Shown: one piece after another, positions 4,067-6,357 of the stretch
Layout of the letters: the number at the start of each line of letters is the position of its first letter
Numbering within the stretch: the first letter of the stretch is position 1
IMG/VR virus record: IMGVR_UViG_2563366840_000003
Length of the DNA stretch: 23,883 bases
From: a virus
Taxonomy: Duplodnaviria; Heunggongvirae; Uroviricota; Caudoviricetes
Strand: one strand, 5' to 3'
Position numbers and translations under genes: made by a program
The notes under the pieces: model-generated
What the model saw: only the letters and a program-made list of their open reading frames with translations
Told to the model about the DNA's origin: nothing
Database searches by the model: none

Positions 4067-4102
4067 GCGGCGATATTACACTAATATATTTATTAGAGCA
4101 AT
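4066..4102 (-). promoter_or_regulatory. C1-type operator (4086-4102) overlapping the -35 of a leftward promoter (-10 TAATAT at 4078-4073)
   Basis: Minus strand reads ATTGCTCTAATAAATAT, 16/17 to the P1 C1 operator consensus ATTGCTCTAATAAATTT as recalled; TTGCTC serves as -35, with a 17-nt spacer to TAATAT. Confidence 0.55.
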
Positions 4103-6357
4103 ACACCCAAAACGTCATGAGCTACACCTCGAGTGTCCCCCTTACAAGACACAGAACGTCTGGCAAAAAGAGGTTCCACTCTGAAGCCACTGTCATGATA
4201 AAGCTCTCTGATGTTTGGCGCGCCACTGTTAGTAATGAGAACCTTTGCACCTCGACGATGAGCATCCGTCAACAGAGACACCAGGCGTTTTTGCTCTTCA
4301 AACTTAAAGTCATGACCGGAATAGTTCGTGAATCCCTCTGTATTTGGAAGCGGTTCATACGGCGGATCGCAAAAGATGACATCTCCTTCTCCGGCAGCTT
4401 CAATCACCGCTGCAAAATCACCGCATACAAACTCAGACCGCCCTTCCGCACCGAGGAAGGCTTCCATCTCCTGTAATGGGAAATACGGAGTTTTATACTT
4501 CCCGTAACCGACATTGAACTCACCGGCCTGGTTGTAACGCGTCAATCCGTTAAAACAATGTCGGTTCAGGAACAAAAACGCCGCTGCGCGATGTAAATCA
4601 TCATAGACTTGTTTGTTAAACGCATTCCGTACTGCCAGGTATCCTTCCTGTGTGTTGTAGTCCTGGAAGAAACGATGCGCCAGTGTGATAAGTGAATGCG
4701 CCTCGCGTTGCAGAGTCTTGTAAAAGTTAATCAGGTCAGCATTCACATCATTTAGCAGATTTTCCTGGTATCCGGCATTCGTGAAGACAGCTCCGCCACC
4801 GACAAAAGGTTCGATCAGGCGCTTCCCTTCTGGCAAATAGCGAAAGATTTGTTCCAGAACACCAAATTTTCCACCAGCCCATTTGAATATGGACCGTTCG
4901 AATTCTGCCGCTGGTTTAACTTTTCGCTCTTTTGTTTCACTTCCTTCTTTCTGCCGACATACGGCCTTAGTAATCCGATCGCCAATCCAGCGCATTACTG
5001 GTATTGCCATACTATTGCCGATCGCTTTGTAACGCGGTCCGTCAGCTGCAAGCATCGCGGCCTCTTCTTCGCTTAAATCTGGATAGTGATTGCGAAGATA
5101 TGCCAGTTCATCTGAATTAACTTTTTTACGCTTTTCCGTCGGGATCAACGTATGCCCATCAGGAAAACCTTGCAGCCTTTCACATTCGACAGGGGTAAGA
5201 CGGCGGACAGCTACTTCTGCGTTTCTTACTTCATAGCAAACAGCTGTTGGATTTTTAGCCATTAGAGATGGTGAAGTATTCTTAGTTGCAGCATGTTGTG
5301 TACCGCTCATACGCTCAGGAAAAGCCAATGTAACAAGATGCTCATGGCTTTCTTGCTCTCGTGCCCGCAATGTACCATGCCCTTCTGACCAAAAACCTGC
5401 TCCTGTGCTGCTAAAAACGGCAAGGTCAGTGGCATCTTTAAAATCTCTTGCCTTTACTGTCGATGCGGTTTCATCGTCAATATATTCCCCAAATGCTGCC
5501 ATCCTGAAAGCGTTTACGGCTTTCGTCGATTTCATACCGGGTGGCATGTCAGCATGTAGGCATGGATTTAGGCTTTCGCCACTGATTGCAGCGCCATTTG
5601 CAATAATGGCGGAAGCGATTTCCTTCTTTTTTCGGCTCGGCGCAATATTCCGGCGCACGCCTTCGAACTCAAAAAGTACCGTTGCGGGATCGAGGTCTGT
5701 TCGAGCACTTGCGACAACAAACACGCGTCGGCGTCGTTGTGCCACTCCGAAGTATTGGGCATCAAGGATTCTCCAGGCCACCTTTCGCTGCGGTCCATAA
5801 ATACAACCACACTGCGGCCACTTTGGAGCATGGCAACCGGTTTTGCCATCCCACCGCCAGAACGCGTTACTTTTTCCTGATTCAGGTCGATCACCTGGTT
5901 CAAATGGCGCATCTTCTCCAGCCAATCCGGCAAGGAAACATCCGAAGGCGTTATCTGCCGATGACAGGACTCCTGGGACATTTTCCCAGACGATAACTGT
6001 CGGTTTGAGGAAGGACTCAGACCGTTTGTCGTCAATTGCATTTGCAAGCTCCACATACTTCAAAGTTAGCGCGCCGCGTTCATCATCAAGCCCACCACGT
6101 AAGCCCGCGATACTGAATGCCTGACAAGGCGTACCCCCGACGAGCACATCAGGGGATTCGATTTCCCCAGCCAGGACTTTTTTGGCAAGTTTTGTCATGT
6201 CGCCAAGGTTGGCGACATGGGGCCAGCGGTGCGCAAGAACGGCAGATGGAAAAGGCTCGATTTCAGCAAACCACGCCGGACGCATACCCAACGGTTCCCA
6301 GGCAATACTCGCGGCTTCAATTCCACTGCAAACAGATCCATAGCACAGCTCTTTCAC
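4093..6357 (-). CDS. dmt: bifunctional DNA methyltransferase: N-terminal C5-cytosine MTase fused to C-terminal Dam-type N6-adenine MTase
   Basis: 754 aa. The N-half has C5-MTase motifs in canonical order ([34 protein letters not shown]). The C-half aligns with E. coli Dam ([14 protein letters not shown]...[10 protein letters not shown] vs FLKWAGGKY...EPFVGAGSVF; CDPPYEP vs CDPPYAP). Start overlaps the upstream gene's stop. Confidence 0.85.

Follow-up and report, generated by a model that had tools for sequence, protein, structure and literature searches.

The closest described relative of the locus analysed here is Dmt of phage P1 (formerly Dam; AAQ14041 in GenBank AF234172). The P1 record already calls the protein "bifunctional", the cytosine half being hedged as 'perhaps at C5 cytosine'. 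That the Dam half methylates the adenine of GATC is stated in the GenBank note and in PMC12707154. The same paper, citing Sternberg & Coulby 1990, states that the P1 enzyme is needed for methylation of the GATC-rich pac site at the start of packaging, so that dmt is essential in Dam- hosts only. In a Dam+ host, dmt was found to be non-essential by CRISPRi (PMC10695390), and its transcription is induced in lytic infection (bioRxiv 10.64898/2025.12.28.696737). For plasmid P1 in E. coli, origin methylation is essential according to PMC2865523, which cites Abeles & Austin 1987. P7 encodes a shorter protein (Dam, AAQ07538, 672 aa) annotated, in the same wording as in P1, as a 'hypothetical bifunctional DNA methyltransferase'. 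In full-text literature searches, we found no report of a cytosine activity or target for Dmt. A further point of comparison is provided by the C5 methylases of Bacillus phages, for which the concept of multispecificity is set out in PMC12707154.

The sequence under study (the window) is a stretch of 23,883 nucleotides from a tailed-phage record, IMGVR_UViG_2563366840_000003. From the list of open reading frames and their translations, dmt was located on the minus strand at 4093..6357, where it begins with GTG at 6357 and ends with TAA at 4093-4095. The reading frame is uninterrupted over this interval, encodes 754 aa and is preceded, 5′ of the GTG, by a GGAGAGG ribosome-binding site. Megablast aligned it to P1 dmt over 2,265 nt, its full length, with 99.7% nucleotide identity. 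At the protein level 750 of the 754 residues are identical, the four differences (window/P1) being G74/W, S241/R, G275/S and V752/I. P1 and P7 are also collinear with most of the window, and we assign the gene as the dmt of a P1-like phage-plasmid, orthologous to P1 Dmt and in effect the type member of an already described gene family. A sequence-only reading of this DNA had proposed that a C5-cytosine and a Dam-type methyltransferase are fused in the 754-aa product, and both domains were indeed found by Pfam and NCBIfam. For two decades, the P1 literature and GenBank annotation have recorded the fusion together with the operon, its operator and the Dam-dependent origin: that finding is correct and already known.

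Two further possibilities were considered and set aside. The intact reading frame and wide conservation ruled out a pseudogene or a fusion artefact, and a link to a restriction enzyme partner is not indicated, as P1 has no restriction gene annotated in the collinear flanks.

The gene is widely distributed. It is present in 498 PLSDB plasmids, nearly all of them non-mobilizable P1-like phage-plasmids of Escherichia, Salmonella or Klebsiella. Among 60 sampled homologues of the Dmt C5 subfamily, 41 join the C5 domain to a D12 Dam and 12 to the unrelated phage Dam PF05869. Enterobacter, Kosakonia, Salmonella and Pantoea genomes are the source of these sampled fusions, and the architecture is also common outside P1.

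The catalytic core of the C5-cytosine methylase, with motifs I-VIII and the catalytic Cys78, was delimited to residues 1-242 (5632..6357, minus strand) using PF00145, TIGR00675 and an alignment with M.HhaI. Motifs IX-X lie at residues 385-470 (4948..5205, minus strand), where residues 385-399 and a GNS align to M.HhaI residues 271-318. PF00145 matched the N-terminal half with 126 bits (Pfam, cut-off 22) and TIGR00675 (dcm) with 117.3 bits (NCBIfam, cut-off 100.65). The motif set is complete within residues 1-470: it includes E32 and D53, motif IV (G74-G-T-P-C78-Q), motif VI (E125-N-V), motif VIII (Q207-R-R209-R-R211), motif IX (residues 385-399) and motif X (G447-N-S). In the alignment with M.HhaI, motif IV reads VGGTPC78QAFS against AGFPC81QAFS, and PCQ, ENV, QxRxR, IX and X occur in the correct order. 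The canonical motif I, FxGxG, is absent from the C5 half and C10-S-G-I-E14 stands in its place. Since CSGIE is kept in 95% of the subfamily alignment (136 cluster representatives plus the window), it is best described as a subfamily-defining variant and not as decay.

The same 137 sequences served to measure conservation. All catalytic residues are kept in the window protein, and each is 90-100% conserved over the alignment. The complete C5 motif set announced by the sequence-only reading is therefore borne out by the alignments with M.HhaI and with the 137 sequences. Inactivating substitutions in the catalytic motifs, named there as what would refute the proposal, were not found in either alignment, since the window matches the consensus at all positions conserved at 90% or above except N237. 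An AF2 model built on a 60-sequence alignment was good for the C5 core and the Dam domain, and Foldseek matched its C5 core to M.HhaI and HaeIII (E about 1e-8). In the C5 core, synonymous and non-synonymous codon differences stood at 14:6 against P7 and 11:3 against RCS47; for the Dam half, the counts were 21:10 (P7) and 7:2 (RCS47). Both halves appear to be under purifying selection, the counts being small.

One of the four differences from P1 falls in motif IV. At position 74, where GG-T-P-C-Q has its first Gly, the window has G and the laboratory P1 reference W. G74 occurs in all 118 of the close homologues compared and in 94% of the aligned subfamily. A 31-mer search found the exact window allele in 194 plasmids, while the W74 allele was found in three laboratory P1 records only and in no plasmid. 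Because G74 is general among homologues and plasmids and W74 is confined to laboratory P1, we consider the window allele to be the natural, consensus form. In practice, the G74W change of laboratory P1 calls for caution: a negative outcome with that strain may not extend to natural alleles such as this one. Some alleles, those of the RCS47 type (1,095 aa), are interrupted immediately before the catalytic Cys78 by a Hint/LAGLIDADG intein of 341 aa.

Between motifs VIII and IX lies the variable C5 target-recognition region (residues 243-384; 5206..5631, minus strand), which is replaced or resized between alleles. It is the sole wholesale difference among P1-like alleles, the flanks being 93-99% identical. 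Allele sizes are nested and differ by whole modules: 672 (P7-type), 710/718, 754/762, 822/854 and 862/870 aa. The recognition region itself measures 142 aa in the window and 98, 234 or about 250 aa in other alleles; in P7, an unrelated 60-aa segment takes the place of window residues 243-384. In the wider subfamily, the spacer between motifs VIII and IX has a median length of 250 aa and contains modules of 35-60 aa in varying order, with 25 non-collinear HSP pairs. TL-type cores, a pattern picked by eye, numbered 184 in these sequences against 42.5 +/- 6.2 in shuffles, an excess of about 4-fold. A unit HMM for the recognition modules, trained without the P1-like alleles, gave unit counts of one (P7 type), two (710 type), three (window) and five (822 type). 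The three TL-core units of the window are in tandem, at about residues 282-313, 313-338 and 346-372, and just one of them has an E-value below 0.1 with the unit HMM. BLAST self-comparison revealed no significant internal repeats in the variable region. As to structure, AF2 run on a 17-sequence alignment gave an unusable model (mean pLDDT 32). With the 60-sequence alignment, pLDDT remained below 30 over residues 231-388, so the predicted structure is silent on the recognition modules. Judged from these allele comparisons, the recognition region is a mosaic of modules that appear to be swappable among P1-like elements.

The two methylase domains are joined by a Lys/Glu-rich linker (residues 471-486; 4900..4947, minus strand), which forms a low-confidence stretch in the AF2 model. 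A cluster of 473-aa, C5-only proteins ends in this linker, and we read it as a truncation or frameshift there. The Dam-type N6-adenine methylase of the D12 class follows at residues 487-754 (4096..4899, minus strand), as placed by PF02086, TIGR00571 and alignment with E. coli Dam. PF02086 matched residues 493-725 with 191.5 bits (Pfam, cut-off 22) and TIGR00571 (dam) scored 247.7 bits (NCBIfam, cut-off 114.85). The E. coli Dam equivalog NF008152 was not reached (242.7 against 441). Over 261 aligned residues, the domain shares 40% identity with E. coli Dam (residues 4-265 of the latter). It carries the AdoMet motif F518-V-G520-G-G522 and a catalytic D664-P-P-Y667; with DPPY kept and this level of identity, the E. 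coli Dam-like C-half proposed from sequence stands. Foldseek paired the AF2 model of the domain with E. coli Dam (E 1e-22, TM 0.91). The residues of E. coli Dam which read GATC are, as reported by Horton and colleagues in 2006, K9, Y119, N120, L122, R124, P134 and Y138. Five of these seven positions are identical in Dmt (K9, N120, L122, R124 and Y138), Y119 being replaced by F and P134 by G. In P7, a late promoter, LPdam2, is predicted inside dam and is a candidate source of a Dam-only product.

The gene closes a uhr-hrdC-dmt operon. The first gene, uhr (94 aa; 7252..7536, minus strand, ATG at 7536), was placed by the P1 annotation and matched phrog_2213 at 212.7 bits, a Pfam search giving no match. 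The second, hrdC (6354..7259, minus strand), belongs to the RdgC family (PF04381 at 328 bits; P1 annotation). Its TGA stop overlaps the GTG start of dmt in the sequence GTGA at 6354-6357, an overlap which indicates translational coupling of hrdC and dmt. The operon is headed by Pdmt (7579-7608, minus strand), a sigma-70 promoter overlapped by the C1 operator Odmt (formerly Op68), both located from the sequence and the P1 annotation. The 17-bp operator, ATTGCTCTAATAAATAT at 7608-7624, is identical to P1 Odmt. Odmt and both Pdmt hexamers are identical to those annotated in P1, the sole difference lying downstream, near 7572. At the other end of the gene, a divalent C1 operator, Oban (formerly Op72a/b; 4075..4102, minus strand), was mapped from the P1 annotation; it contains ATTGCTCTAATAAATAT at 4086-4102 and overlaps the dmt stop codon. 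The operon with an rdgC homologue under a repressor operator, as proposed earlier, thus corresponds to hrdC (PF04381) and Odmt, both annotated in P1.

The plasmid origin oriR (9840..10081, plus strand) is collinear with the annotated P1 oriR and contains five Dam sites, a DnaA box and five 19-bp RepA iterons (incC); repA is located 3′ of it, at 10138-10998. The five GATC sites lie at 9884-9938, a span of 55 bp that starts 3,527 bp from the dmt start codon. They are the GATC-rich origin, about 3.5 kb away, that had been picked out from the sequence. When the 93 GATC sites of the window were placed at random, a cluster of that density appeared 84 times in 20,000 trials (0.4%). Three more GATC sites were found in the -35 region of PkilA (P53), at 21532..21554, where the GATC list coincides with the mapped P1 annotation 'Dam methylation site 1-3 within the regulatory region of kilA'. 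PkilA is the C1-controlled promoter of the lytic replicon kilA-repL. The pac site is outside the window. With regard to the origin, the dam dependence described by Abeles and Austin in 1987 was reportedly shown with mini-P1 replicons lacking dmt and reliant on host Dam.

What, then, does the enzyme do? Because dmt lies behind the C1 operator Odmt/Pdmt, it is expected to be off in the prophage, and Dmt would be made after induction or infection. With dmt repressed, it would be host Dam that methylates oriR during plasmid maintenance. In lytic growth, Dmt would top up GATC methylation on rapidly replicating DNA, pac included, and PkilA with its GATC sites may be another target. The sequence-only reading had instead linked the gene to the origin, the element encoding Dmt to license its GATC-dependent oriR independently of the host. 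The clustering of five GATC sites in oriR, 3.5 kb away from dmt, and the need of plasmid P1 for origin methylation (PMC2865523) speak for such a link. Nevertheless, the C1 operator is expected to keep dmt silent while oriR works, and the dam-host dependence of plasmid P1 (PMC2865523) points to host Dam. In addition, the dmt phenotype documented in PMC12707154 concerns pac and not oriR. To our knowledge, the known hosts (Escherichia, Salmonella and Klebsiella) are all Dam+ species. Repression in lysogens is inferred from the operator, and leaky expression could still methylate oriR. On balance, licensing of the origin by Dmt seems improbable, and this part of the earlier proposal is not supported in view of the C1 operator, the pac phenotype and the CRISPRi result in a Dam+ host. 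The reading we favour, and hold with considerable confidence as a whole, is that of a P1 dmt orthologue which would provide GATC methylation in the lytic phase, with host Dam acting at oriR and the C5 half shielding progeny DNA.

For the cytosine half, an anti-restriction role, which the earlier reading had suggested, is plausible and in keeping with the mosaicism of the alleles: this half would most likely methylate progeny DNA, protecting it from restriction in the next host, with a target set by the swappable recognition region. That the half is catalytically dead or vestigial, the Dam half alone being of importance, would agree with the silence of the literature on a cytosine activity, the non-canonical motif I, alleles that are naturally split or truncated (for instance the C5-only cluster of 473 aa, with 123 members), and G74W in motif IV of laboratory P1. 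We judge this improbable: the catalytic residues are all kept and 90-100% conserved over 137 sequences, synonymous changes exceed non-synonymous ones in the core, and W74 is found in laboratory P1 only, against G74 in 118 of 118 close homologues and in 194 plasmids. Some alleles, moreover, have an intein exactly at the catalytic Cys, and an intein at a residue is typical of functionally constrained sites. A more specific form of the protective role is that the cytosine half is multispecific, an array of short recognition modules (about three here) each directing a different target sequence. This idea, which we put forward tentatively, draws on the nested, whole-module differences among P1-like alleles; on the long spacer (median 250 aa) of the wider family with its reordered 35-60 aa modules and 25 non-collinear HSP pairs; on the excess of TL-type cores (184 against 42.5 +/- 6.2 in shuffles); and on the one, two, three and five HMM units of the P7, 710, window and 822 types. 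It is weakened by the BLAST self-comparison without significant internal repeats, by the single window unit of three with an E-value below 0.1, by the choice of the TL core pattern by eye and by the lack of an AF2 structure for the region; one large multi-loop recognition domain would give a similar picture. If the modules are real, the window would have about three, P7 one, and the 862-aa allele common in E. coli five or six. Gain, loss and exchange of modules among P1-like elements might then retune protection against host restriction systems, a suggestion of the same tentative kind. That a multispecific C5 half built of exchangeable modules has had its activity missed through the G74W change next to Pro-Cys in laboratory P1 is conceivable, though we would not count on it.

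The modular recognition region may account for the diversity of alleles among P1-like phage-plasmids. A multispecific C5 half, if confirmed, would be a tunable lytic-phase shield of P1-like phage-plasmids against several restriction systems. P1-like phage-plasmids frequently carry resistance genes in Enterobacteriaceae.

Compared with known systems, the window is nearest to P1, with which it shares the 754-aa length of Dmt, the operon, the operators and the distance to oriR. P7 and other P1-like Dmt alleles have the catalytic core, the Dam half and the operon of the window. With M.HhaI and M.HaeIII, Dmt has in common motifs IV, VI, VIII, IX and X, the catalytic Cys, ENV, the Q-R-R triad and the core fold. 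It differs from them by its CSGIE motif I, by an insertion of about 65 aa between motifs VI and VIII, and by a recognition region that is unrelated to theirs and modular. With E. coli Dam (PDB 2g1p, 4rtj) and DpnM, it shares DPPY, FxGxG, most DNA-contact residues and the fold; unlike E. coli Dam, the Dam of Dmt forms the C-terminal part of a larger polypeptide. Finally, the pattern of modules resembles that of the multispecific methylases of Bacillus phages, a likeness which would suit an anti-restriction role. The SPR, phi3T, rho11s and SPbeta enzymes are phage-borne like Dmt and silent in the lysogen, as is expected of Dmt, with proposed modules between motifs VIII and IX; unlike Dmt, they have no fused adenine methylase, and the two are likened here by concept and not by sequence.

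Position 74 of Dmt, in motif IV of the C5-cytosine methylase half, distinguishes the window from laboratory P1. The codon (window 6136-6138, compared with 12220-12222 of the laboratory P1 sequence, L001) specifies Trp in the laboratory P1 reference records AF234172, AF234173 and NC_005856, whereas Gly74 is found in the window and likewise in all close homologues (118/118). A 31-mer of the window allele has exact matches in 194 plasmids and in 7 phage records; for the Trp74 allele, no plasmid was matched. The laboratory P1 strain may be hypomorphic for the C5 methylase.

The same motif is interrupted in dmt of phage RCS47 (L003 501-3785, outside the window), where a 341-aa intein (Hint_2 + LAGLIDADG_3) separates Pro77 from Cys78, the catalytic residue of the C5 methylase. 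Since the junctions are GGTP|C...VVHN|CQAFS, with the insertion lying between Pro77 and Cys78, the catalytic Cys doubles as the +1 splice nucleophile. This longer dmt also occurs in Ro157c2YLVW and in some plasmids, e.g. H41 and H44.

Among P1-like elements, Dmt falls into length classes of 672, 710/718, 754/762, 822/854 and 862/870 aa. These are distinguished by whole modules in the recognition region (window 5206-5631; homologues P0098, P0099, P0105 and P0314), and the Dam half and the N-terminus also exist in two diverged versions. A common C5-only form of 473 aa (P0001, 123 member sequences) stops inside the Lys/Glu-rich linker (window 4900-4947), probably due to a frameshift. Two separate genes are annotated in some phages, among them 673R5 and the P1 strain of PMC10695390 (dmt-A/dmt-B). 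From the C5-only form and these two-gene annotations it follows that unfused versions of Dmt are in circulation. In Enterobacter prophages (e.g. P0321 and P0326), the C5 subfamily of Dmt is joined to another adenine methylase family, PF05869 (phage Dam); C5 + N6A fusions thus arose with two unrelated adenine methylases.

Several Dmt proteins in NCBI (homologues P0002, P0030 and P0036) are named 'multidrug DMT transporter permease', an annotation error that appears to have spread from the gene symbol dmt. Uhr, the 94-aa product of the first gene of the operon (window 7252-7536, minus strand), was labelled 'unknown function'. It gave no match to Pfam and matched PHROG 2213 (212.7 bits), annotated as nucleoside triphosphate pyrophosphohydrolase.

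In PkilA (P53), the promoter that drives the lytic replicon kilA-repL under C1 control, the -35 region is overlapped by three GATC sites (window 21532-21554). It is this Dam-sensitive site, and not oriR, that would be active while dmt is expressed.

Other parts of the window depart from P1. Megablast found nothing in segment 11286-13661 that matches P1 par, so the partition genes parA (11392-12603) and parB (12600-13565) are of another type. At window 19194-19743, the rlfA/rlfB segment known from P1 is missing or substituted. Window 1-1501 is not collinear with P1, which points to a rearrangement or to another module in its place: where P1 has ban, the window carries a tail-collar-domain ORF (281-796, minus strand) and a Resolvase/invertase gene (842-1426, plus strand) abutting tRNA-Met(CAT) (1760-1835).
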